Source: Escherichia coli
Lineage (GTDB): Bacteria > Pseudomonadota > Gammaproteobacteria > Enterobacterales > Enterobacteriaceae
NCBI RefSeq assembly: GCF_003334255.1
Contig: NZ_QOWU01000054.1
Reading direction: 5' to 3' (one strand)
Length of the DNA stretch: 39,423 nt
Position 1 is the first letter of the stretch; each line of letters opens with the position of its first letter. The notes beneath the pieces were generated by a model. The model worked only from the letters and a program-made list of their open reading frames with translations. It ran no database searches and had not been told where the DNA came from. The position numbers and the translations under genes are program-made. Shown one piece after another: positions 426-39,423 of the stretch.

Positions 426-1265
426 TTAATACACTTCATCCAGCACGTTAATTTTCAAAAGATCGCGAATCAACGCATTTTTATCGCTATTTTGCAGCCA
501 TATGGCATAAAGCGGCCGTGAAAGTGTTGTGCTATCGACAACGGTATGCAGGCCGCCTTTTTTACGCGCCCAGCTGACGGGTAGCCAGGTGCAACCATTA
601 AGCATCGCAATCTGTTGCTGTGCCAGTTCAGCAGAACTGGTTGTCAGAATGGGCACTTCGTCAGCACCGATCAAACCTGCCTCATGCTGTTGAAAATCTG
701 GCCCCCACTCAAGTCGCAGATAATTAAGATCTCCCTTTAGTTTTGAAGGGGCACTGGTATAAAGCGCTAAAGTGAAATATCCCAGCAACTGACTACTAAA
801 TTCGTCCATTTTGGGCGCTTCAGTGGTAATAAGAAGATCAAGCTGGCGTTCATGCAGCTGTTTTACCAGAGACTGCCGTTGGGCAATTCGCGCTTCGAAC
901 TGTAAGCCTGTATGGGCATCCTGATTTTGATACAAGCGTCCCAGCCACTGATTAAGCATACATTCCCACAACGAGGCGCTGGCACCGATAGAAAACTCGT
1001 TATGTCGTGAGGTATGCGCCACCTCCTTACGGGCGGCCTGCCAGGTGCTCATGAGCGTTTCTGCATAAGGCAGTAGTTTTTCACCGGCAGCGGTTAAACG
1101 GATATTGTTTCTGTGGCGGGTGAAAAGGTTCACACCCAGTTGATTTTCCAGTTGTCTGATTCGAAAGCTCACTGCTGACTGGGTCAGATAGAGCGATTCA
1201 GCCGCTCGACCAAAGTGACGCGTTCGGCTAACTTCCAGGAAAGTTTTTAACAATTCCGTATCCAC
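426..1265 (-). CDS. hdfR: LysR-family transcriptional regulator HdfR (279 aa)
   Basis: ORF track 279 aa; N-terminal HTH region ([33 protein letters not shown]) typical of LysR family; position next to rrn-distal tRNAs as in E. coli. Confidence 0.9.
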
Positions 1266-1383
1266 AGTGCTCTCCGCAAAATTATTTGTCGTTATGATTT
1301 AAATGTTTTGTTTTACACTCTGTCAAGCGTAACTAATACTCCGCGCCATAACTAGCTCGGTCAAAGAATTAGGAGCGTGCAGG

Positions 1384-1722
1384 ATGGCGGAAAGCTTTAC
1401 GACGACTAATCGATATTTCGACAATAAACATTATCCACGTGGATTCTCTCGTCATGGTGATTTCACCATCAAAGAGGCACAACTGCTTGAGCGTCATGGT
1501 TATGCCTTCAATGAGTTGGATCTTGGCAAACGCGAGCCGGTTACCGAGGAAGAGAAACTCTTCGTAGCAGTATGCCGTGGCGAACGTGAGCCAGTGACAG
1601 AAGCAGAACGCGTGTGGTCCAAGTATATGACGCGTATTAAGCGTCCAAAACGTTTTCACACCCTTTCCGGCGGTAAACCGCAGGTTGAAGGTGCTGAAGA
1701 CTACACCGATTCTGACGATTAA
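1384..1722 (+). CDS. maoP: YifE/MaoP family protein (112 aa)
   Basis: ORF track 112 aa [27 protein letters not shown]...; divergent from hdfR; recognised as YifE from memory. Confidence 0.85.
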
Positions 1723-1723
1723 T

Positions 1724-1748
1724 AAAAAGGGCGAAATGCCCTTTTTTT
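1724..1748. terminator. Bidirectional Rho-independent terminator between convergent yifE and comM
   Basis: AAAAAGGGC-GAAAT-GCCCTTTTTTT: GC stem flanked by A-run and T-run on both sides. Confidence 0.65.
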
Positions 1749-3267
1749 ATGTCAGTAGTTTCTGCAGATGGATGAGCAAACGGTCAATCGCTCGATAGCT
1801 AACTGCCTCCTGCAAATGCTGACGTGTGATAATGTCAGACTGATCAATATCAGCAATGGTTCGTGCAACTTTCAATAACCGCTGCCAGGCACGAATCGAT
1901 AACCCCAGATGGATCAGTGTTCCTTCCAACCACATCGCATCTTCGCTCTCAAGTTTGCAGAATTGGCGTATTTCCGGACTATCCAGCCAGGCATTCAGTT
2001 TATTCTGCCGCTTAAATTGGCGCTCTCTGGCGGCCATTACGCGTTGTTTAACGGTGGCGCTGCTTTCTCCCGGCACTACCGTTTTACTCAAAATGCCGGG
2101 GGGTGGTAATGGGATCTCCAGTGAGAGATCGAAGCGGTCGAGAAAGGGCCCCGAGAGCCGGTTGAGATAACGTAATGTCTGTTCTGGCGTGCAGCGGTTA
2201 TGGTTTCCCTGATAATGTCCGGTAGGGCTGGGATTCATCGCCGCAACAAGCTGGAAACGGGCTGGATAGGTTATTTTTGCTCGTGTGCGTGAAAGATGGA
2301 TCTGCCCGGATTCAATCGGCTCTCGCAAGGCATCCAGTGTACGCCGTTCAAATTCAGGTAGCTCATCAAGAAAAAGCACGCCGTTATGCGCCAGCGAAAT
2401 TTCACCGGGCCCTGGAATTGCGCCACCGCCTACCATCGCAGTTAACGATGCACTGTGATGAGGTGAGCGGAACGGGCGCTGCCGCCATTGTTTTTGTACT
2501 GATTCAGCATTTACCAGACTTAATATCGCAGCACTCTCCAGTGCCTCTTCATTGCTTAAATCTGGCAACAGGCCATTAATACGGCTGGCGAGCATTGTTT
2601 TACCTGTTCCCGGCGGCCCAATCAGTAAAAGGTTGTGCCCGCCAGCAGCGGTAATTTCCAGTCCTCGCTTTCCTTGTTCCTGACCGATAACATCACTGAG
2701 ATCATGTTGTAGCGCCCGGGATACTGCATCAGTTGGTTTCGGGCGTTCGAGAGCGTGCTTACCTTCCAGAAACGCACAGACAGCTTGCAGATGATCGGCT
2801 ATCAGGCATCCTTCACCGTTAATTAGCCCCACTTCATCTTCGTTATCTTTCGCGACGATAATTTTTCTGCCCGACTTAATAGCTTCAGTTGCACTGGAGA
2901 TTGCGCCGGGAACGCCACGCAGAGCGCCTGTAAGCGCCAGTTCTCCGACTAATTCATATTCATCTAACTTATTGGCTGTAAGCTGTTCTGAGGCCGCCAG
3001 CAACGCAATGGCGATAGGTAAATCATATCGTCCCCCTTCTTTTGGCAGATCAGCTGGAGCCAGGTTGATGGTGATTTTTTTCGCCGGATATTCATATCCG
3101 CTATTGATAATGGCGCTGCGCACGCGATCGCGAGCTTCTTTTACCGTTGTTTCTGGTAAGCCCACCATCGTTAAGCCGGGTAGACCTTTACTGATATGTA
3201 CCTCAACAGTGATCGGGGGCGCATTTACTCCCAGGGCTGCGCGGGTATGAACAATTGACAGTGACAT
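1747..3267 (-). CDS. comM: ComM/YifB Mg-chelatase-like AAA+ ATPase (506 aa from the second in-frame ATG)
   Basis: ORF track 516 aa; Walker A GPPGTGKT present; internal ATG (MSLSIVHTRA...) preferred because GGAGGG Shine-Dalgarno lies 4 nt upstream of it; first ATG at 3297 is an alternative. Confidence 0.85.
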   Translation of the reverse strand: MSLSIVHTRAALGVNAPPITVEVHISKGLPGLTMVGLPETTVKEARDRVRSAIINSGYEYPAKKITINLAPADLPKEGGRYDLPIAIALLAASEQLTANKLDEYELVGELALTGALRGVPGAISSATEAIKSGRKIIVAKDNEDEVGLINGEGCLIADHLQAVCAFLEGKHALERPKPTDAVSRALQHDLSDVIGQEQGKRGLEITAAGGHNLLLIGPPGTGKTMLASRINGLLPDLSNEEALESAAILSLVNAESVQKQWRQRPFRSPHHSASLTAMVGGGAIPGPGEISLAHNGVLFLDELPEFERRTLDALREPIESGQIHLSRTRAKITYPARFQLVAAMNPSPTGHYQGNHNRCTPEQTLRYLNRLSGPFLDRFDLSLEIPLPPPGILSKTVVPGESSATVKQRVMAARERQFKRQNKLNAWLDSPEIRQFCKLESEDAMWLEGTLIHLGLSIRAWQRLLKVARTIADIDQSDIITRQHLQEAVSYRAIDRLLIHLQKLLT

Positions 3268-3439
3268 AAGCCCTCCTTGAGTCACCATTATGTGCATAAG
3301 ATATCGCTGCTGTAGCCCGCTAATTCGTGAATTTTAGTGGCTGATTCCTGTTTATTTGTGCAAGTGAAGTTGAGTTGTTCTGGCGGTGGAATGATGCTCG
3401 CAAAAATGCAGCGGACAAAGGATGAACTACGAGGAAGGG

Positions 3440-3619
3440 AACAACATTCATACTGAAATTGAATTTTTTTCACTCACTATTTTATTTTTAAAAAACAACA
3501 ATTTATATTGAAATTATTAAACGCATCATAAAAATCGGCCAAAAAATATCTTGTACTATTTACAAAACCTATGGTAACTCTTTAGGCATTCCTTCGAACA
3601 AGATGCAAGAAAAGACAAA
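3440..3619 (+). promoter_or_regulatory. ilvLXGMEDA promoter/leader region: AT-rich upstream tract with candidate promoter hexamers TTGTAC (3551-3556) and TATGGT (3570-3575)
   Basis: Very AT-rich bendable sequence immediately upstream of the leader peptide ORF; the two hexamers are only 13 nt apart so exact promoter assignment is uncertain. Confidence 0.4.
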
Positions 3620-3703
3620 ATGACAGCCCTTCTACGAGTGATTAGCCTGGTGGTGATTATTATCCCACCGTGCGGGGCTGCACTTGGACGAGGAAAGGCT
3701 TAG
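3620..3703 (+). CDS. ilvL: ilv operon leader peptide, 27 aa MTALLRVISLVVIIIPPCGAALGRGKA, rich in Leu/Val/Ile regulatory codons
   Basis: Direct translation of atgacagcccttctacgagtgattagcctggtggtgattattatcccaccgtgcggggctgcacttggacgaggaaaggcttag; followed by attenuator hairpin. Confidence 0.85.
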   Translation: MTALLRVISLVVIIIPPCGAALGRGKA

Positions 3704-3726
3704 AGATCAAGCCTTAACGAACTAAG

Positions 3727-3759
3727 ACCCCCGCACCGAAAGGTCCGGGGGTTTTTTTT
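3727..3759 (+). terminator. ilv attenuator (Rho-independent terminator of the leader transcript)
   Basis: CCCCCGCACC-GAAA-GGTCCGGGGG stem-loop followed by T8. Confidence 0.8.
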
Positions 3760-3789
3760 GACCTTAAAAACATAACCGAGGAGCAGACA

Positions 3790-3840
3790 ATGAATAACAG
3801 CACAAAATTCTGTTTCTCAAGATTCAGGACGGGGAACTAA
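3790..3840 (+). CDS. ilvX: Small ORF, 16 aa [16 protein letters not shown], between attenuator and ilvG
   Basis: ATG preceded by GAGGAG Shine-Dalgarno; stop 2 nt before ilvG start; matches remembered ilvX small protein. Confidence 0.5.
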
Positions 3841-3842
3841 CT

Positions 3843-5489
3843 ATGAATGGCGCACAGTGGGTGGTACATGCGTTGCGGGCACAGGGTGTGAACACCGTTT
3901 TCGGTTATCCGGGTGGCGCAATTATGCCGGTTTACGATGCATTGTATGACGGCGGCGTGGAGCACTTGCTATGCCGACATGAGCAGGGTGCGGCAATGGC
4001 GGCTATCGGTTATGCTCGTGCTACCGGCAAAACTGGCGTATGTATCGCCACGTCTGGTCCGGGCGCAACCAACCTGATAACCGGGCTTGCGGACGCACTG
4101 TTAGATTCCATCCCTGTTGTTGCCATCACCGGTCAAGTGTCCGCACCGTTTATCGGCACTGACGCATTTCAGGAAGTGGATGTCCTGGGATTGTCGTTAG
4201 CCTGTACCAAGCACAGCTTTCTGGTGCAGTCGCTGGAAGAGTTGCCGCGCATCATGGCTGAAGCATTCGACGTTGCCTGCTCAGGTCGTCCTGGTCCGGT
4301 TCTGGTCGATATCCCAAAAGATATCCAGTTAGCCAGCGGTGACCTGGAACCGTGGTTCACCACCGTTGAAAACGAAGTGACTTTCCCACATGCCGAAGTT
4401 GAGCAAGCGCGCCAGATGCTGGCAAAAGCGCAAAAACCGATGCTGTACGTTGGCGGTGGCGTGGGTATGGCGCAGGCAGTTCCGGCTTTGCGTGAATTTC
4501 TCGCTGCCACAAAAATGCCTGCCACCTGTACGCTGAAAGGGCTGGGCGCAGTAGAAGCAGATTATCCGTACTATCTGGGCATGCTGGGGATGCACGGCAC
4601 CAAAGCGGCAAACTTCGCGGTGCAGGAGTGTGACCTGCTGATCGCCGTGGGCGCACGTTTTGATGACCGGGTGACCGGCAAACTGAACACCTTCGCGCCA
4701 CACGCCAGTGTTATCCATATGGATATCGACCCGGCAGAAATGAACAAGCTGCGTCAGGCACATGTGGCATTACAAGGTGATTTAAATGCTCTGTTACCAG
4801 CATTACAGCAGCCGTTAAATATCAATGACTGGCAGCAACACTGCGCGCAGCTGCGTGATGAACATTCCTGGCGTTACGACCATCCCGGTGACGCTATCTA
4901 CGCGCCGTTGTTGTTAAAACAACTGTCGGATCGTAAACCTGCGGATTGCGTCGTGACCACAGATGTGGGGCAGCACCAGATGTGGGCTGCGCAGCACATC
5001 GCCCACACTCGCCCGGAAAATTTCATCACCTCCAGCGGTTTAGGTACCATGGGTTTTGGTTTACCGGCGGCGGTTGGCGCACAAGTCGCGCGACCGAACG
5101 ATACCGTTGTCTGTATCTCCGGTGACGGCTCTTTCATGATGAATGTGCAAGAGCTGGGCACCGTAAAACGCAAGCAGTTACCGTTGAAAATCGTCTTACT
5201 CGATAACCAACGGTTAGGGATGGTTCGACAATGGCAGCAACTGTTTTTTCAGGAACGATACAGCGAAACCACCCTTACTGATAACCCCGATTTCCTCATG
5301 TTAGCCAGCGCCTTCGGCATCCATGGCCAACACATCACCCGGAAAGACCAGGTTGAAGCGGCACTCGACACCATGCTGAACAGTGATGGGCCATACCTGC
5401 TTCATGTCTCAATCGACGAACTTGAGAACGTCTGGCCGCTGGTGCCGCCTGGCGCCAGTAATTCAGAAATGTTGGAGAAATTATCATGA
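3843..5489 (+). CDS. ilvG: Acetolactate synthase II (AHAS II) large subunit, intact 548 aa
   Basis: ORF track 548 aa uninterrupted; thiamine-diphosphate enzyme motifs (e.g. [14 protein letters not shown]); first gene of the ilvGMEDA order. Confidence 0.95.
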
Positions 5490-5749
5490 TGCAACATCAG
5501 GTCAATGTATCGGCTCGCTTCAATCCAGAAACCTTAGAACGTGTTTTACGCGTGGTGCGTCATCGTGGTTTCCACGTCTGCTCAATGAATATGGCCGCCG
5601 CCAGCGATGCACAAAATATAAATATCGAATTGACCGTTGCCAGCCCACGGTCGGTCGACTTACTGTTTAGTCAGTTAAATAAACTGGTGGACGTCGCACA
5701 CGTTGCCATCTGCCAGAGCACAACCACATCACAACAAATCCGCGCCTGA
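5486..5749 (+). CDS. ilvM: Acetolactate synthase II small (regulatory) subunit, 87 aa
   Basis: ORF track 87 aa [29 protein letters not shown]...; ATGA start/stop overlap with ilvG. Confidence 0.9.
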
Positions 5750-5768
5750 GCGCAAAAGGAATATAAAA

Positions 5769-6698
5769 ATGACCACGAAGAAAGCTGATTACATTTGGTT
5801 CAATGGGGAGATGGTTCGCTGGGAAGACGCGAAGGTGCATGTGATGTCGCACGCGCTGCACTATGGCACTTCGGTTTTTGAAGGCATCCGTTGCTACGAC
5901 TCGCACAAAGGACCGGTTGTATTCCGCCATCGTGATCATATGCAGCGTCTGCATGACTCCGCCAAAATCTATCGCTTCCCGGTTTCGCAGAGCATTGATG
6001 AGCTGATGGAAGCTTGTCGTGACGTGATCCGCAAAAACAATCTCACCAGCGCCTATATCCGTCCGCTGATCTTCGTCGGTGATGTTGGCATGGGAGTAAA
6101 CCCGCCAGCGGGATACTCAACCGACGTGATTATCGCTGCTTTCCCGTGGGGAGCGTATCTGGGCGCAGAAGCGCTGGAGCAGGGGATCGATGCGATGGTT
6201 TCCTCCTGGAACCGCGCAGCACCAAACACCATCCCGACGGCGGCAAAAGCCGGTGGTAACTACCTCTCTTCCCTGCTGGTGGGTAGCGAAGCGCGCCGCC
6301 ACGGTTATCAGGAAGGTATCGCGCTGGATGTGAACGGTTATATCTCTGAAGGCGCAGGCGAAAACCTGTTTGAAGTGAAAGATGGTGTGCTGTTCACCCC
6401 ACCGTTCACCTCCTCCGCGCTGCCGGGTATTACCCGTGATGCCATCATCAAACTGGCGAAAGAGCTGGGAATTGAAGTACGTGAGCAGGTGCTGTCGCGC
6501 GAATCCCTGTACCTGGCGGATGAAGTGTTTATGTCCGGTACGGCGGCAGAAATCACGCCAGTGCGCAGCGTAGACGGTATTCAGGTTGGCGAAGGCCGTT
6601 GTGGCCCGGTTACCAAACGCATTCAGCAAGCCTTCTTCGGCCTCTTCACTGGCGAAACCGAAGATAAATGGGGCTGGTTAGATCAAGTTAATCAATAA
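5769..6698 (+). CDS. ilvE: Branched-chain amino acid aminotransferase, 309 aa
   Basis: ORF track frame 5703..6698; start set at MTTKKADYIWFNGEM with AAGGA Shine-Dalgarno upstream, matching known IlvE N-terminus. Confidence 0.95.
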   Translation: MTTKKADYIWFNGEMVRWEDAKVHVMSHALHYGTSVFEGIRCYDSHKGPVVFRHRDHMQRLHDSAKIYRFPVSQSIDELMEACRDVIRKNNLTSAYIRPLIFVGDVGMGVNPPAGYSTDVIIAAFPWGAYLGAEALEQGIDAMVSSWNRAAPNTIPTAAKAGGNYLSSLLVGSEARRHGYQEGIALDVNGYISEGAGENLFEVKDGVLFTPPFTSSALPGITRDAIIKLAKELGIEVREQVLSRESLYLADEVFMSGTAAEITPVRSVDGIQVGEGRCGPVTKRIQQAFFGLFTGETEDKWGWLDQVNQ

Positions 6699-6762
6699 AT
6701 ACAAAAAATGGGACGGCACGCACCGTCCCATTTACGAGACAGACACTGGGAGTAAATAAAGT

Positions 6763-8613
6763 ATGCCTAAGTACCGTTCCGCCACCACCACTCATGGTCG
6801 TAATATGGCGGGTGCTCGTGCGCTGTGGCGCGCCACCGGAATGACCGACGCCGATTTCGGTAAGCCGATTATCGCGGTTGTGAACTCGTTCACCCAATTT
6901 GTACCGGGTCACGTCCATCTGCGCGATCTCGGTAAACTGGTCGCCGAACAAATTGAAGCGGCTGGCGGCGTTGCCAAAGAGTTCAACACCATTGCGGTGG
7001 ATGATGGGATTGCCATGGGCCACGGGGGGATGCTTTATTCACTGCCATCTCGCGAACTGATCGCTGATTCCGTTGAGTATATGGTCAACGCCCACTGCGC
7101 CGACGCCATGGTCTGCATCTCTAACTGCGACAAAATCACCCCGGGGATGCTGATGGCTTCCCTGCGCCTGAATATTCCGGTGATCTTTGTTTCCGGCGGC
7201 CCGATGGAGGCCGGGAAAACCAAACTTTCCGATCAGATCATCAAGCTCGATCTGGTTGATGCGATGATCCAGGGCGCAGACCCGAAAGTATCTGACTCCC
7301 AGAGCGATCAGGTTGAACGTTCCGCGTGTCCGACCTGCGGTTCCTGCTCCGGGATGTTTACCGCTAACTCAATGAACTGCCTGACCGAAGCGCTGGGCCT
7401 GTCGCAGCCGGGCAACGGCTCGCTGCTGGCAACCCACGCCGACCGTAAGCAGCTGTTCCTTAATGCTGGTAAACGCATTGTTGAATTGACCAAACGTTAT
7501 TACGAGCAAAACGACGAAAGTGCACTGCCGCGTAATATCGCCAGTAAGGCGGCGTTTGAAAACGCCATGACGCTGGATATCGCGATGGGTGGATCGACTA
7601 ACACCGTACTTCACCTGCTGGCGGCGGCGCAGGAAGCGGAAATCGACTTCACCATGAGTGATATCGATAAGCTTTCCCGCAAGGTTCCACAGCTGTGTAA
7701 AGTTGCGCCGAGCACCCAGAAATACCATATGGAAGATGTTCACCGTGCTGGTGGTGTTATCGGTATTCTCGGCGAACTGGATCGCGCGGGGTTACTGAAC
7801 CGTGATGTGAAAAACGTACTTGGCCTGACGTTGCCGCAAACGCTGGAACAATACGACGTTATGCTGACCCAGGATGACGCGGTAAAAAATATGTTCCGCG
7901 CAGGTCCTGCAGGCATTCGTACCACACAGGCATTCTCGCAAGATTGCCGTTGGGATACGCTGGACGACGATCGCGCCAATGGCTGTATCCGCTCGCTGGA
8001 ACACGCCTACAGCAAAGACGGCGGCCTGGCGGTGCTCTACGGTAACTTTGCGGAAAACGGCTGCATCGTGAAAACGGCAGGCGTCGATGACAGCATCCTC
8101 AAATTCACCGGCCCGGCGAAAGTGTACGAAAGCCAGGACGATGCGGTAGAAGCGATTCTCGGCGGTAAAGTTGTCGCCGGAGATGTGGTAGTAATTCGCT
8201 ATGAAGGCCCGAAAGGCGGTCCGGGGATGCAGGAAATGCTCTACCCAACCAGCTTCCTGAAATCAATGGGTCTCGGCAAAGCCTGTGCGCTGATCACCGA
8301 CGGTCGTTTCTCTGGTGGCACCTCTGGTCTTTCCATCGGCCACGTCTCACCGGAAGCGGCAAGCGGCGGCAGCATTGGCCTGATTGAAGATGGTGACCTG
8401 ATCGCTATCGACATCCCGAACCGTGGCATTCAGTTACAGGTAAGCGATGCCGAACTGGCGGCGCGTCGTGAAGCGCAGGACGCTCGAGGTGACAAAGCCT
8501 GGACGCCGAAAAATCGTGAACGTCAGGTCTCCTTTGCCCTGCGTGCTTATGCCAGCCTGGCAACCAGCGCCGACAAAGGCGCGGTGCGCGATAAATCGAA
8601 ACTGGGGGATTAA
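6763..8613 (+). CDS. ilvD: Dihydroxy-acid dehydratase, 616 aa
   Basis: ORF track 616 aa [26 protein letters not shown]...; Fe-S cluster Cys motifs (CDKITPG, CPTCGSC). Confidence 0.95.
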
Positions 8614-8615
8614 TA

Positions 8616-10160
8616 ATGGCTGACTTGCAACCCCTGTCCGGTGCTCCGGAAGGTGCCGAATATTTAAGAGCAGTGCTGCGCGCGCCGGTTTACGAGGCGG
8701 CGCAGGTTACGCCGCTACAAAAAATGGAAAAACTGTCGTCGCGTCTTGATAACGTCATTCTGGTGAAGCGCGAAGATCGCCAGCCAGTGCACAGCTTTAA
8801 GCTGCGCGGCGCATACGCCATGATGGCGGGCCTGACGGAAGAACAGAAAGCGCACGGCGTGATCACTGCTTCTGCGGGTAACCACGCGCAGGGCGTCGCG
8901 TTTTCTTCTGCGCGGTTAGGCGTGAAGGCCCTGATCGTTATGCCAACCGCCACCGCCGACATCAAAGTCGACGCGGTGCGCGGCTTCGGCGGCGAAGTGC
9001 TGCTCCACGGCGCGAACTTTGATGAAGCGAAAGCCAAAGCGATCGAACTGTCACAGCAGCAGGGGTTCACCTGGGTGCCGCCGTTCGACCATCCGATGGT
9101 GATTGCCGGGCAAGGCACGCTGGCGCTGGAACTGCTCCAGCAGGACGCCCATCTCGACCGCGTATTTGTGCCAGTCGGCGGCGGCGGTCTGGCTGCTGGC
9201 GTGGCGGTGCTGATCAAACAACTGATGCCGCAAATCAAAGTGATCGCCGTAGAAGCGGAAGACTCCGCCTGCCTGAAAGCAGCGCTGGATGCGGGTCATC
9301 CGGTTGATCTGCCGCGCGTAGGGCTATTTGCTGAAGGCGTAGCGGTAAAACGCATCGGTGACGAAACCTTCCGTTTATGCCAGGAGTATCTCGACGACAT
9401 CATCACCGTCGATAGCGATGCGATCTGTGCGGCGATGAAGGATTTATTCGAAGATGTGCGCGCGGTGGCGGAACCCTCTGGCGCGCTGGCGCTGGCGGGA
9501 ATGAAAAAATATATCGCCCTGCACAACATTCGCGGCGAACGGCTGGCGCATATTCTTTCCGGTGCCAACGTGAACTTCCACGGCCTGCGCTACGTCTCAG
9601 AACGCTGCGAACTGGGCGAACAGCGTGAAGCGTTGTTGGCGGTGACCATTCCGGAAGAAAAAGGCAGCTTCCTCAAATTCTGCCAACTGCTTGGCGGGCG
9701 TTCGGTCACCGAGTTCAACTACCGTTTTGCCGATGCCAAAAACGCCTGCATCTTTGTCGGTGTGCGCCTGAGCCGCGGCCTCGAAGAGCGCAAAGAAATT
9801 TTGCAGATGCTCAACGACGGCGGCTACAGCGTGGTTGATCTCTCCGACGACGAAATGGCGAAGCTACACGTGCGCTATATGGTCGGCGGACGTCCATCGC
9901 ATCCGTTGCAGGAACGCCTCTACAGCTTCGAATTCCCGGAATCACCGGGCGCGCTGCTGCGCTTCCTCAACACGCTGGGTACGTACTGGAACATTTCTTT
10001 GTTCCACTATCGCAGCCATGGCACCGACTACGGGCGCGTACTGGCGGCGTTCGAACTTGGCGACCATGAACCGGATTTCGAAACCCGGCTGAATGAGCTG
10101 GGCTACGATTGCCACGACGAAACCAATAACCCGGCGTTCAGGTTCTTTTTGGCGGGTTAG
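8616..10160 (+). CDS. ilvA: Threonine deaminase (biosynthetic threonine dehydratase), 514 aa
   Basis: ORF track 514 aa; PLP-binding region (HSFKLRGA) and C-terminal regulatory domains. Confidence 0.95.
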   Translation: MADLQPLSGAPEGAEYLRAVLRAPVYEAAQVTPLQKMEKLSSRLDNVILVKREDRQPVHSFKLRGAYAMMAGLTEEQKAHGVITASAGNHAQGVAFSSARLGVKALIVMPTATADIKVDAVRGFGGEVLLHGANFDEAKAKAIELSQQQGFTWVPPFDHPMVIAGQGTLALELLQQDAHLDRVFVPVGGGGLAAGVAVLIKQLMPQIKVIAVEAEDSACLKAALDAGHPVDLPRVGLFAEGVAVKRIGDETFRLCQEYLDDIITVDSDAICAAMKDLFEDVRAVAEPSGALALAGMKKYIALHNIRGERLAHILSGANVNFHGLRYVSERCELGEQREALLAVTIPEEKGSFLKFCQLLGGRSVTEFNYRFADAKNACIFVGVRLSRGLEERKEILQMLNDGGYSVVDLSDDEMAKLHVRYMVGGRPSHPLQERLYSFEFPESPGALLRFLNTLGTYWNISLFHYRSHGTDYGRVLAAFELGDHEPDFETRLNELGYDCHDETNNPAFRFFLAG

Positions 10161-10168
10161 GGAAAAAT

Positions 10169-10200
10169 GCCTGATAGCGCTTCGCTTATCAGGCCTACCC
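10169..10200. repeat. REP (repetitive extragenic palindromic) element
   Basis: GCCTGATAGCGCTTCGCTTATCAGGCCTAC imperfect palindrome with the typical REP consensus, between convergent ilvA and ilvY. Confidence 0.6.
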
Positions 10201-10211
10201 GCGCGACAACG

Positions 10212-11105
10212 TCATTTGTGGTTCGGCAAAATCTTCCAGAATGCCTCAATTAGCGGCTCATGTAGCCGCTTTTTCTGCGCACACACGCCCAGCTCAAACG
10301 GCGTTTTCTCATCGCTGCGCTCTAAAATCATCACGCGGTTACGCACCGGTTCGGGGCTGTTTTCCAGCACCACTTCCGGCAACAATGCCACGCCACAGCC
10401 GAGTGCCACCATCGATACCATCGCTTCATGCCCGCCAACCGTGGCGTAAATCATCGGGTTACTGATTTTATTGCGTCGAAACCACAGTTCAATGCGGCGG
10501 CGTACCGGCCCCTGATCGGCCATAATAAACGGCACCGTTGACCAGTCCGGCTTCTCTACCGACACCTGATTACGCACCGGGCAGGGCAGCGCGGGGGCAA
10601 TCAGCACTACTGCCAGATTCTCCAGCATCGAAAACGCCACTGCGCCGGGCAAGGTTTCCGGTTTACCCGCAATCGCCAGATCCGCTTCACCAGTGACCAC
10701 CTTTTCCATCGCATCTGCCGCATCACCAGTAGTAAGTTTAATCTCCACCGACGGGTGTTCCGCGCGGAAGCGATCCAGAATCGGCGGCAGATGGCTGTAG
10801 GCAGCGGTCACCGAGCAGAAGATATGTAATTCGCCAGAGAGCGACGGCCCTTGCTGATCGATGGTGTGGCGCAACTGCTGATACTGCAACAGCGTTTGCT
10901 GGGCGAAAACGCGCAGCTCTTCGCCCGCTTCAGTCAGCGTCACCGTGCGGTTATCGCGCACAAACAGCGGCTGACCGAGATCTTCTTCCAGGCGCTGAAT
11001 CTGCCGTGAGAGCGTGGATGGGCTAACGTGCATCGCCCGCGCGCTGCGGCCAAAATGGCGGCTTTCCGCCAGATGCAGGAAGGTTTTCAGATCGCGTAAA
11101 TCCAC
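10212..11105 (-). CDS. ilvY: LysR-family regulator IlvY (297 aa), GTG start
   Basis: ORF track frame 10212..11189; known IlvY N-terminus [40 protein letters not shown] begins at an in-frame GTG (11105-11103). Confidence 0.9.
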
Positions 11106-11254
11106 AGGGACAGCCCTCGATGTTGACGTTGCAAAAATTGCAATGTGACGTTGTGAATATATCAATTTCCGCAATAAATTTCCTGTCATATAGTGAATTC
11201 AATCTCGCAAACGCGAACCGAACAATAAGAAGCACAACATCACGAGGAATCACC
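11106..11254. promoter_or_regulatory. Divergent ilvY / ilvC promoter-operator region
   Basis: Contains tandem self-complementary TTGCAA hexamers (ATTGCAAAAATTGCAAT, about 11128-11144) of the kind bound by a LysR-type regulator, between divergent ilvY and ilvC. Confidence 0.6.
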
Positions 11255-12730
11255 ATGGCTAACTACTTCAATACACTGAATCTGCGCCAGCAGCTGGCAC
11301 AGCTGGGCAAATGTCGCTTTATGGGCCGCGATGAATTCGCCGATGGCGCGAGCTACCTTCAGGGTAAAAAAGTAGTCATCGTCGGCTGTGGCGCACAGGG
11401 TCTGAACCAGGGCCTGAACATGCGTGATTCTGGTCTCGATATCTCCTACGCTCTGCGTAAAGAAGCGATTGCCGAGAAGCGCGCGTCCTGGCGTAAAGCG
11501 ACCGAAAATGGTTTTAAAGTGGGTACTTACGAAGAACTGATCCCACAGGCGGATCTGGTGATTAACCTGACGCCGGACAAGCAGCACTCTGATGTAGTGC
11601 GCACCGTACAGCCACTGATGAAAGACGGCGCGGCGCTGGGCTACTCGCACGGTTTCAACATCGTCGAAGTGGGCGAGCAGATCCGTAAAGATATCACCGT
11701 AGTGATGGTTGCGCCGAAATGCCCAGGCACCGAAGTGCGTGAAGAGTACAAACGTGGGTTCGGCGTACCGACGCTGATTGCCGTTCACCCGGAAAACGAT
11801 CCGAAAGGCGAAGGCATGGCGATTGCCAAAGCCTGGGCGGCTGCAACCGGTGGTCACCGTGCGGGTGTGCTGGAATCGTCCTTCGTTGCGGAAGTGAAAT
11901 CTGACCTGATGGGCGAGCAAACCATCCTGTGCGGTATGTTGCAGGCTGGCTCTCTGCTGTGCTTCGACAAGCTGGTGGAAGAAGGTACCGATCCAGCATA
12001 CGCAGAAAAACTGATTCAGTTCGGTTGGGAAACCATCACCGAAGCACTGAAACAGGGCGGCATCACCCTGATGATGGACCGTCTCTCTAACCCGGCGAAA
12101 CTGCGTGCTTATGCGCTTTCTGAACAGCTGAAAGAGATCATGGCACCCCTGTTCCAGAAACATATGGACGACATCATCTCCGGCGAATTCTCTTCCGGTA
12201 TGATGGCGGACTGGGCCAACGATGATAAGAAACTGCTGACCTGGCGTGAAGAGACCGGCAAAACCGCGTTTGAAACCGCGCCGCAGTATGAAGGCAAAAT
12301 CGGCGAGCAGGAGTACTTCGATAAAGGCGTACTGATGATTGCGATGGTGAAAGCGGGCGTTGAACTGGCGTTCGAAACCATGGTCGATTCCGGCATCATT
12401 GAAGAGTCTGCATATTATGAATCACTGCACGAGCTGCCGCTGATTGCCAACACCATCGCCCGTAAGCGTCTGTACGAAATGAACGTGGTTATCTCTGATA
12501 CCGCTGAGTACGGTAACTATCTGTTCTCTTACGCTTGTGTGCCGTTGCTGAAACCGTTTATGGCAGAGCTGCAACCGGGCGACCTGGGTAAAGCTATTCC
12601 GGAAGGCGCGGTAGATAACGGGCAACTGCGTGATGTGAACGAAGCGATTCGCAGCCATGCGATTGAGCAGGTAGGTAAGAAACTGCGCGGCTATATGACA
12701 GATATGAAACGTATTGCTGTTGCGGGTTAA
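11255..12730 (+). CDS. ilvC: Ketol-acid reductoisomerase, 491 aa
   Basis: ORF track frame 11120..12730; start set at [22 protein letters not shown] with GAGGA Shine-Dalgarno; NADPH-binding GCGAQG motif. Confidence 0.95.
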
Positions 12731-12745
12731 GTGCGCGCTGATGCC

Positions 12746-12812
12746 CTCACCCCGACCCTCTCCCACAGGGAGAGGGAGAAAACACTCAAGGCCTTCTCCT
12801 GGAGAAGGCCTT
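12746..12812. terminator. Two GC-rich hairpins between convergent ilvC and ppiC (likely bidirectional terminator / palindromic unit)
   Basis: CCCTCTCCC-ACA-GGGAGAGGG and AAGGCCTTCTCC-T-GGAGAAGGCCTT inverted repeats. Confidence 0.5.
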
Positions 12813-12816
12813 GCTA

Positions 12817-13122
<306 letters not shown>

Positions 13123-13199
13123 TCAGGCGGCGATTTTAGCATGATCCGCAGATGCTAACGTAATTGTCAGTCAGGGAGTGGCTGGTACATATATGGCAA

Positions 13200-13220
13200 A
13201 AGCCCGGAAAATCCGGGCTT
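13200..13220 (-). terminator. Candidate stem-loop downstream of yifN on the minus strand
   Basis: AAGCCCGG-AAAAT-CCGGGCTT hairpin; weak T-tract on minus strand so low confidence. Confidence 0.3.
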
Positions 13221-13296
13221 CGCAGGTCCCTCAAGGGGAGAAAACTTAGGGCCTCTATGGGCTACAAAGTCATTATCGGGGATGGTTATTTTATTG

Positions 13297-13787
13297 TCAA
13301 TTTATGAGCGATATGGCATTGATTGACTTGATGACCGCCCTCTGTATGTCTGCAACCAACTCATGTGGCAAACATTGATTAAGATACCCTCTGTAAGTCC
13401 TTGCTCTGTTTAATCTGTTTCGACTGACTTGTTGTACCAGGTCGGCTTTGGCCCAACGAATCTGCTGATCAAAGAATTGCAGGTCATTGATAACATTACT
13501 GGCTATTTCAACATGCATTCCACGTTTTAACTTGTCTGGTCGCGAGTGGTTGATAATGGAACGACGATGCATGCGTTGCCATTAATTTTTCCGTTGAGCA
13601 CGACAACTAACCTGTTTTTTATCATTTCAGGAGGAATGCGGCCATCGTAATACGTCGTGCTGAACGGTCCATTTTGGCTAACAGGATAGTTACCAAAGTT
13701 GCATTCCAGTATTTCACCAACCTTAGGGCTGAAATTAATCGCCACGAGTAAACCTCTCCTTAGTAAACTCTGAAAAAGTAATAACAC
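13297..13787 (-). pseudogene. yifN: PemK/MazF (Kid)-family toxin-like gene split by a frameshift into two overlapping ORFs
   Basis: ORF track 13527..13787 (86 aa) and 13297..13572 (91 aa) on the same strand in different frames; N-part GEILECNFG...RLVVVLN...CIVVPLSTT and C-part GMHVEIASN...LPHELVADIQRAVIKSI resemble the two halves of Kid/MazF. Confidence 0.5.
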
Positions 13788-13961
13788 AACGTTACGACCC
13801 GATATTTTCTAAGTCTAATGGATTCACGATGAACTCCGATTTCGGTCTTCTCTCTCTGATTTAAACATCCGCAGCCAACCGGTTAGCGGCTTACACGCGG
13901 TCACATTCAAATGCGATTCTGCTACAATCCTCCCCCCGTTCGAAGATTGAGCAATACACCT

Positions 13962-15983
13962 ATGCGTCTAAACCCCGGCCAACAACAAGCTGTCGAATTC
14001 GTTACCGGCCCCTGCCTGGTGCTGGCGGGCGCGGGTTCCGGTAAAACTCGTGTTATCACCAATAAAATCGCCCATCTGATCCGCGGTTGCGGTTATCAGG
14101 CGCGGCACATTGCGGCGGTGACCTTTACTAATAAAGCAGCGCGCGAGATGAAAGAGCGTGTAGGGCAGACGCTGGGGCGCAAAGAGGCGCGTGGGCTGAT
14201 GATCTCCACTTTCCATACGTTGGGGCTGGATATCATCAAACGCGAGTATGCGGCGCTTGGGATGAAAGCGAACTTCTCGTTGTTTGACGATACCGATCAG
14301 CTTGCTTTGCTTAAAGAGTTGACCGAGGGGCTGATTGAAGATGACAAAGTTCTCCTGCAACAACTGATTTCGACCATCTCTAACTGGAAGAATGATCTCA
14401 AAACACCGTCCCAGGCGGCAGCAAGTGCGATTGGCGAGCGGGACCGTATTTTTGCCCATTGTTATGGGCTGTATGATGCACACCTGAAAGCCTGTAACGT
14501 TCTCGACTTCGATGATCTGATTTTATTGCCGACGTTGCTGCTGCAACGCAATGAAGAAGTCCGCGAGCGCTGGCAGAACAAAATTCGCTATCTGCTGGTG
14601 GATGAGTATCAGGACACCAACACCAGCCAGTATGAGCTGGTGAAACTGCTGGTGGGCAGCCGCGCGCGCTTTACCGTGGTGGGTGACGATGACCAGTCGA
14701 TCTACTCCTGGCGCGGTGCACGTCCGCAAAACTTGGTGCTGCTGAGTCAGGATTTTCCGGCGCTGAAGGTGATTAAGCTTGAGCAGAACTATCGCTCTTC
14801 CGGGCGTATTCTGAAAGCGGCGAACATCCTGATCGCCAATAACCCGCACGTCTTTGAAAAGCGTCTGTTCTCCGAACTGGGTTATGGCGCGGAGCTAAAA
14901 GTATTAAGCGCGAATAACGAAGAACATGAGGCTGAGCGCGTTACTGGCGAGCTGATCGCCCATCACTTCGTCAATAAAACGCAGTACAAAGATTACGCCA
15001 TTCTTTATCGCGGTAACCATCAGTCGCGGGTGTTTGAAAAATTCCTGATGCAAAACCGCATCCCGTACAAAATATCTGGTGGTACGTCGTTTTTCTCTCG
15101 TCCTGAAATCAAGGACTTGCTGGCTTATCTGCGCGTGCTGACTAACCCGGACGATGACAGCGCATTTCTGCGTATCGTTAACACGCCGAAGCGAGAGATT
15201 GGCCCGGCTACGCTGAAAAAGCTGGGTGAGTGGGCGATGACGCGCAATAAAAGCATGTTTACCGCCAGCTTTGATATGGGCCTGAGTCAGACGCTTAGCG
15301 GACGTGGTTATGAAGCATTGACCCGCTTCACTCACTGGTTGGCAGAAATCCAGCGTCTGGCGGAGCGGGAGCCGATTGCCGCGGTGCGTGATCTGATCCA
15401 TGGCATGGATTATGAATCCTGGCTGTACGAAACATCGCCCAGCCCGAAAGCCGCCGAAATGCGCATGAAGAACGTCAACCAACTGTTTAGCTGGATGACG
15501 GAGATGCTGGAAGGCAGTGAACTGGATGAGCCGATGACGCTCACCCAGGTGGTGACGCGCTTTACTTTGCGCGACATGATGGAGCGTGGTGAGAGTGAAG
15601 AAGAGCTGGATCAGGTGCAACTGATGACTCTCCACGCGTCGAAAGGGCTGGAGTTTCCTTATGTCTACATGGTCGGTATGGAAGAAGGGTTTTTGCCGCA
15701 CCAGAGCAGCATCGATGAAGATAATATCGATGAGGAGCGGCGGCTGGCCTATGTCGGCATTACCCGCGCCCAGAAGGAATTGACCTTTACGCTGTGTAAA
15801 GAACGCCGTCAGTACGGCGAACTGGTGCGCCCGGAGCCGAGCCGCTTTTTGCTGGAGCTGCCGCAGGATGATCTGATTTGGGAACAGGAGCGCAAAGTGG
15901 TCAGCGCCGAAGAACGGATGCAGAAAGGGCAAAGCCATCTGGCGAATCTGAAAGCGATGATGGCGGCAAAACGAGGGAAATAA
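13962..15983 (+). CDS. rep: ATP-dependent DNA helicase Rep, 673 aa
   Basis: ORF track frame 13911..15983; start set at [39 protein letters not shown] (UvrD/Rep superfamily 1 helicase, Walker A GAGSGKT). Confidence 0.95.
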
Positions 15984-18915: not shown

Positions 18916-19045
18916 AGTGTGGTAGAATATCAGCTTACTATTGCTTTACGAAAGCGTATCCGGTGAAATAAAGTCAACCTTTAGTTGGTTAATGTTACAC
19001 CAACAACGAAACCAACACGCCAGGCTTATTCCTGTGGAGTTATAT

Positions 19046-19375
19046 ATGAGCGATAAAATTATTCACCTGACTGACGACAGTTTTGACACGGATGTACTCA
19101 AAGCGGACGGGGCGATCCTCGTCGATTTCTGGGCAGAGTGGTGCGGTCCGTGCAAAATGATCGCCCCGATTCTGGATGAAATCGCTGACGAATATCAGGG
19201 CAAACTGACCGTTGCAAAACTGAACATCGATCAAAACCCTGGCACTGCGCCGAAATATGGCATCCGTGGTATCCCGACTCTGCTGCTGTTCAAAAACGGT
19301 GAAGTGGCGGCAACCAAAGTGGGTGCACTGTCTAAAGGTCAGTTGAAAGAGTTCCTCGACGCTAACCTGGCGTAA
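19046..19375 (+). CDS. trxA: Thioredoxin 1, 109 aa
   Basis: ORF track frame 18941..19375; start set at [41 protein letters not shown] (WCGPC active site). Confidence 0.95.
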
Positions 19376-39344: not shown

Positions 39345-39423
39345 TAGGTGATGCTGCCAACTTACTGATTTAGTGTATGATGGTGTTTTTGAGGTGCTCC
39401 AGTGGCTTCTGTTTCTATCAGCT
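39345..39423 (+). mobile_element. IS1: Left end of insertion sequence IS1 (terminal inverted repeat and start of insA), truncated by the window edge
   Basis: GGTGATGCTGCCAACTTACTGATTTAGTGTATGATGGTGTTTTTGAGGTGCTCCAGTGGCTTCTGTTTCTATCAGCT matches the IS1 IRL-proximal sequence from memory. Confidence 0.8.
39400..39423 (+). CDS. insA: IS1 InsA N-terminus (partial, continues beyond window): V/M-A-S-V-S-I-S
   Basis: GTG GCT TCT GTT TCT ATC AGC reads MASVSIS, the remembered InsA N-terminus; only 8 codons are inside the window. Confidence 0.5.

Follow-up and report, generated by a model that had tools for sequence, protein, structure and literature searches.

Does the ilvG gene at this locus encode a working acetohydroxy-acid synthase II (AHAS II), and what would an intact copy tell us about the strain that carries it? 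The frameshift in ilvG of Escherichia coli K-12, and the valine sensitivity that goes with it, have been textbook knowledge since 1981. The original prediction was that the ilvG examined here is intact, that it would make the strain valine-resistant and that its state would be a useful indicator of strain lineage. We analysed the whole stretch of DNA that contains it, 39,423 nucleotides in length and called the window below. In our reading, the window very probably carries the ordinary, ancestral ilvG within ilvLXGMEDA and stems from a natural E. coli strain, very closely related to K-12 but distinct from it.

The reading frame of ilvG is uninterrupted, just as first reported: the listing of open reading frames and a separate re-translation agree on 548 residues with one terminal stop, and careful re-translation uncovered neither a frameshift nor a premature stop. 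This is a real gene and not a chance ORF, because its product scores 1073.9 bits against the NCBIfam equivalog NF006524 ('acetolactate synthase 2 catalytic subunit'; cut-off 738), because three Pfam domains are found in it (TPP_enzyme_N, PF02776, at residues 1-115, covering model positions 1-117 of 119; TPP_enzyme_M, PF00205, at 186-321 and TPP_enzyme_C, PF02775, at 374-522, both models matched end to end) and because its DNA matches, with 100% identity over all 1647 bases, the ilvG that is annotated in many natural isolates (WP_001012607.1). The alignment to NF006524 spans 1-547 of 548 profile positions. The protein also passes TIGR00118 (718 bits, cut-off 538), and the equivalogs for AHAS III and other large subunits all stay under their own cut-offs. 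In the translation, E47, F109, Q110, M250, R276, V375 and W464 stand at the expected positions and a GDG...DN motif for ThDP and Mg is present from residue 427; we take these, from mutagenesis of AHAS II, to be the catalytic Glu47, the GDG...(D/N)N motif and the substrate-specificity residues F109, Q110, M250, R276, V375 and W464.

A PDB search with IlvG found no structure of AHAS II, its best match being the large subunit of E. coli AHAS I (6lpi; E=6e-162, residues 2-544). That protein, IlvB, shares fold family and reaction with IlvG, but it belongs to another isozyme with IlvN as its small subunit and is inhibited by valine, unlike AHAS II (PMC8605374). In the protein collection that we searched, the 90%-identity cluster that contains IlvG is represented by a 1041-aa CusA/CzcA efflux pump from Bacteroides and has several such members, which looks like an artefact of clustering or look-up.

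Where, then, does K-12 differ? That K-12 carries a frameshift in ilvG is borne out by the pseudogene annotation in NC_000913 (b4488, NC_000913.3 3950560-3952204) and by a 2-bp loss in the alignment, and the nature of the lesion is derived here from our own alignment. Aligning the window to this pseudogene, the check proposed along with the original prediction, located the lesion: the window has an additional AT at 4819-4820, after MG1655 3951535, the placement of the 2-bp gap inside the ATAT at 4819-4822 being arbitrary. The window reads CCG TTA AAT ATC AAT GAC TGG (P L N I N D W), whereas K-12 reads CCG TTA AAT CAA TGA (P324 L325 N326 Q327 stop) and terminates at codon 328. The K-12 frameshift sequence, ...TTA AAT CAA TGA, is absent from the window, which has TTA AAT ATC AAT GAC in its place. 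All bases of the pseudogene match the ilvG of the window except at this lesion, where one AT is missing, with a truncated product and valine sensitivity as the outcome (PMC8605374). In fact, across leader, ilvG and ilvM together, the only differences from MG1655 are this AT and a 15-bp gap in ilvL, to which we return below.

The gene stands in its usual surroundings. The order ilvL-ilvX-ilvG-ilvM-ilvE-ilvD-ilvA is present and co-linear with the annotated operons of MG1655 and of G1/2, an isolate from healthy human faeces in Germany (Table 1). The ATGA overlap between ilvG and ilvM was read correctly: in tcATGAtg, the TGA of ilvG occupies 5487-5489 and the ATG of ilvM 5486-5488, an arrangement that suggests translational coupling of the two subunits. 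The wild-type ilvG of natural isolates has the same operon position and the same overlap. The wider neighbourhood is canonical, with the 5S rRNA gene, tRNA-Asp, tRNA-Trp, hdfR, maoP and yifB before the ilv operon, then ilvY and ilvC, and beyond ilvC the ECA cluster, thrP, four tRNAs, aslB and aslA. An Rfam match to RF02773 (TrxA thermometer) lies at 18976-19075, upstream of trxA.

Table 1. Features of the ilv region and amino acid differences from K-12 in the window
Feature	Position	Strand	Description	Basis
ilvL	3620..3703	+	leader peptide, 27 codons (MTALLRVISLVVIIIPPCGAALGRGKA) vs 32 (MTALLRVISLVVISVVVIIIPPCGAALGRGKA)	sequence, alignment
Attenuator terminator	3725..3759	+	hairpin and T-run, same as K-12	alignment, RNAfold
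ilvX	3790..3840	+	16-codon small ORF between attenuator and ilvG, same as K-12	K-12/RefSeq annotation of the identical stretch
ilvG	3843..5489	+	AHAS II catalytic (large) subunit	548 codons + TGA, ATG start, no internal stop
ATAT in ilvG	4819..4822	+	codons 326-327 (AAT ATC); K-12 lacks one AT	alignments to MG1655, both alleles translated
ilvM	5486..5749	+	AHAS II small subunit, 87 aa	ORF; NF008362 ('acetolactate synthase 2 small subunit') 133.9 bits, cut-off 68
ilvE, ilvD, ilvA	5769..10160	+	intact, downstream in the ilvG operon	ORFs; co-linear with MG1655 and G1/2 annotation
Nonsynonymous differences from K-12 (1)	5936, 8609, 8626, 14565		ilvE E56D, ilvD G616D, ilvA S4L, rep K202E	
Nonsynonymous differences from K-12 (2)	27031, 31875, 31916, 36472, 37158		rffH R47S, wecF R356G, wzyE V11I, aslB T77R, aslB R306W	

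What would this enzyme do for the cell? As the catalytic subunit of AHAS II, IlvG depends on ThDP, FAD and Mg, and IlvM is the small subunit; the holoenzyme condenses pyruvate with a second pyruvate or with 2-ketobutyrate, the first common step on the way to valine and leucine and to isoleucine. Unlike isozymes I and III, AHAS II escapes inhibition by valine, and a strain that makes it continues to produce isoleucine when valine is added. K-12, with an AT lost from the ATAT and a stop at codon 328, is valine-sensitive. Published physiology runs along these lines: added valine starves K-12 for isoleucine (PMC8605374; PMC3446290), K-12 with a restored ilvG frame grows on 1 mg/ml valine (PMC8605374) and the growth of E. 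coli B on valine dipeptides has been explained by its intact ilvG (PMC3446290). For the window, with ilvG and ilvM both intact, we predict an AHAS II that valine does not inhibit, and we infer both expression and activity of this enzyme in the source strain. Valine resistance is a reasonable prediction and the phenotype to be expected, because both genes are intact and the promoter, the terminator and the start region of ilvG are the same as in K-12; the alignment finds the antiterminator arm and the ribosome-binding region of ilvG to be the same as well.

How much does an intact ilvG say about lineage? Isolates with the identical gene come from humans, chickens, dogs, cattle and river water; G1/2, 300709, ML35 and NCTC86 are natural isolates with the same ilvG as the window, and the identical protein is found on at least 1000 contigs. 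A search of 5426 complete E. coli genomes with a 64-mer centred on the K-12 lesion finds the exact lesion in 340 of them. Every match covers at least 80% of this 64-mer with the lesion in its centre, so an ungapped match at 99% or more must span the lesion. Five genomes at 100% among the matches listed (ER1709, K-12 CETR2G40, XL10-gold, TP10-2 and MC1061) bear names typical for laboratory stocks, and all sampled rows below 100% have a 2-base gap against the K-12 64-mer (66 bases of the record to 64 of the query, or 63 and 60 to 61 and 58). From these comparisons, the intact gene is the ancestral and common state. As a marker it therefore excludes K-12 and nothing finer, and the proposal that it is a useful strain-lineage indicator has to be given up: with the lesion in so few genomes and the identical protein so widespread, an intact ilvG means just 'not K-12'.

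The leader gene of the operon is less ordinary. Relative to MG1655, 15 bp (3950350-3950364) are missing in frame from ilvL after position 3647 (breakpoint 3647/3648, ambiguous within the TGGT at 3648-3651 that the repeat copies share). The wild-type gene has a 15-bp tandem repeat in 2.5 copies (GTGATTAGCCTGGTC / GTGATTAGCGTGGTG / GTGATTA...) and the window has lost one of these copies. Its score against the NCBIfam equivalog for the ilv operon leader peptide, NF007744, is 56 bits with a cut-off of 59, below threshold because five leader residues are absent; its position, and the fact that what remains of the leader is 100% identical to K-12, are the reasons why we nonetheless regard it as the probable orthologous ilv leader. 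At the RNA level, Rfam family RF02744 ('Rev39 5'UTR', from soft-rot Enterobacteriaceae) covers 3546-3823 at 135.4 bits and seems to describe the ilvGMEDA leader by a different name.

How rare is this allele? None of the 5426 complete E. coli genomes matches the leader of the window without a gap, and G1/2 and 300709 retain the 15 bp that the window has lost. One of these 5426 genomes, NZ_OW849064 (isolate 131, Madrid), has lost 15 bp of ilvL independently, with another breakpoint (..VISVVVIII..) and in a background that mismatches the 241-base leader query at 7 positions. In a collection of 15 billion proteins, the exact leader peptide of the window is found on 31 contigs and the NZ_OW849064-type variant on 418, and the source names given for 27-codon leader peptides include Salmonella enterica, Klebsiella pneumoniae and 'MULTISPECIES Enterobacteriaceae'. 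The deletion is not a one-off assembly error, because the Logan contig ERR3331253_7 (3 samples), from an independent assembly, carries the same allele; it is 100% identical to positions 763-14613 of the window with the ilvL deletion included. An exact-pattern search for the deletion junction had no match in GTDB species representatives or in JGI metagenome contigs, and literature searches for a 15-bp or in-frame deletion in ilvL returned nothing specific.

Would the shortened leader still attenuate? In RNAfold predictions for full and truncated leaders, the 5' arm of the terminator, CCCCGCAC (3729-3736), can pair alternatively with GTGCGGGG (3670-3677) to form the antiterminator; this pairing of GUGCGGGG (3670-3677) with CCCCGCAC (3729-3736) is unaffected by the deletion, and so is the terminator. 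The upstream 'protector' hairpin, GC(G/C)UGGUGGUGAUUAUUAUCCCACCGUGC, is also kept. From the 32-codon to the 27-codon leader, the regulatory codons go from 6 to 3 for Val and from 5 to 4 for Ile and stay at 4 for Leu, and the deletion also shifts their spacing from the ilvL start codon. A crude equilibrium simulation of stalled ribosomes, in which the footprint was masked codon by codon and formation of the antiterminator was scored, could not tell stalled from unstalled ribosomes even with the wild-type leader, and we base no conclusion about regulation on it. Our preferred guess is that the leader still attenuates and that the input from valine is somewhat reduced.

One could imagine, then, a strain in which ilvG is intact and the altered attenuation of the shortened leader nonetheless leaves too little AHAS II for valine resistance. 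Five of the 32 leader codons are gone, by composition three Val, one Ile and one Ser, and the leader falls just under its NCBIfam cut-off. Against this scenario, however, the terminator, the antiterminator arm and the protector hairpin are all kept, the hairpin with a similar predicted stability (-15.5 vs -16.3 kcal/mol), Val, Ile and Leu codons still lie in its 5' arm, and cells need the operon for prototrophy. A 27-codon leader, either this one or an equivalent, is found in Escherichia, Salmonella and Klebsiella, and its recurrence on 31 and 418 contigs means that such leaders are tolerated in nature. We thus consider a failure of valine resistance by this route very unlikely, and resistance remains the expected phenotype.

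The second challenge comes from how little the window differs from K-12. It aligns in one co-linear piece to MG1655 3946703-3986061, with 14 SNPs and two indels across 39,346 bases (99.96% identity at substitutions), the indels being the K-12 ilvG lesion and the 15 bp in ilvL. Could the window stem from a laboratory derivative of K-12 that had regained its ilvG, by spontaneous reversion to valine resistance or by engineered repair, an option that the original prediction had left standing? Duplication of the AT in the AAATCAA of K-12 would recreate the sequence of the window exactly, and repair of ilvG has been selected repeatedly in laboratory evolution (PMC8605374; PMC7937436). But the published revertants have either lost 1 bp at the TGA or gained 1 bp, and none of them shows a precise re-insertion of AT (PMC8605374; PMC7937436). 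The 14 SNPs lie scattered and include different mutation types, and at 11 of these 14 sites the window agrees with the wild faecal isolate G1/2. This isolate is the closest complete genome and is closer overall than K-12, with five SNPs and the ilvL indel over the same 39,346 bases, and the ilvG DNA itself is the same as in many wild isolates. A restored K-12 is therefore a highly improbable source, slightly more so than the failure of resistance weighed above. Over window positions 5500-30000, the best complete-genome matches are likewise wild isolates, for example G1/2, G6/7, G8, 300709, ML35 and NCTC86. The description of the background as non-K-12-like thus stands in so far as the strain is not K-12; it misleads in so far as 14 SNPs and two indels in 39.3 kb mark a very close natural relative. 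In the region analysed, the window is among the closest natural relatives of K-12.

The differences from K-12 include 11 in coding sequence, nine of them nonsynonymous and two synonymous (Table 1). We discarded this 9:2 ratio as a signal, given that it is near the expectation for unselected mutations between very recent relatives and that the sample is small. The ilvD change G616D at 8609, in the last codon (616), sets the window apart from K-12, G1/2 and 300709 alike. A private mutation that would hint at selection on the operon was considered for it and rejected: an identical IlvD is found in two lineages (L006 and L008) that are about 66 SNPs away in this region, and the change is a standing polymorphism, possibly brought in by recombination. 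The gene for a yifN/PemK-MazF-like toxin, at about 13297-13745 on the minus strand, appears frameshifted in the window as it does in K-12 and G1/2; its equivalent in the loci of L006 and L008 is intact, as a 149-aa PemK_toxin ORF.

The far end of the window offers a better marker of lineage. Annotated IS1 copies in complete genomes match the final 77 bases (39347-39423), which start with GGTGATGCTGCCAACTTACTGATTTAGTGTATG, in our view a terminal inverted repeat of IS1. The element has gone into the intergenic stretch between aslA and glmZ, 54 bp upstream of where aslA starts, the MG1655 alignment ending at 3986061 and aslA starting at 3986007. The suggestion that this junction could serve as a strain indicator holds up well: it is strain-specific, with no contiguous 100% match to the exact junction (39346/39347) among the 5426 complete genomes. 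In a few complete genomes IS1 is inserted nearby, at sites unlike that of the window, and the aslA-glmZ region may be a preferred IS1 target. Since the window begins at the 5' end of the 5S rRNA gene and finishes inside IS1, it has the look of a draft-assembly contig with a repeat at each end. What really marks the lineage here is the deletion in ilvL together with the junction to IS1, not ilvG.

The finding of an intact ilvG is thus correct, ordinary and already known; nearly every non-laboratory E. coli has an intact copy, and in this respect the finding matters little. [quoted passage not shown] The shortened ilvL leader is the sole mildly unusual item, and a rare, recurrent 27-codon leader is of possible interest both for the study of transcription attenuation and for lineage typing in E. 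coli.

One further reading of this leader deserves mention, namely that the loss of 15 bp is a recurrent regulatory variant which, with fewer Val codons but an intact protector hairpin, resets the multivalent attenuation of ilvGMEDA, as opposed to neutral slippage; the tandem repeat of the wild-type leader would let it arise again and again. We hold this to be unlikely, though less so than either of the two alternatives weighed above. In laboratory evolution, recurrent mutations in or next to ilvL, of whatever kind, are described for 30 of 115 high-temperature lines (PMC4557228), SNPs in the terminator region near ilvL are described in a second study (PMC4166923) and ilvL or adjacent mutations in a further one (PMC7937436). 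If the reading were true, the 15-bp repeat would make ilvL a small mutational hotspot that tunes the synthesis of branched-chain amino acids.
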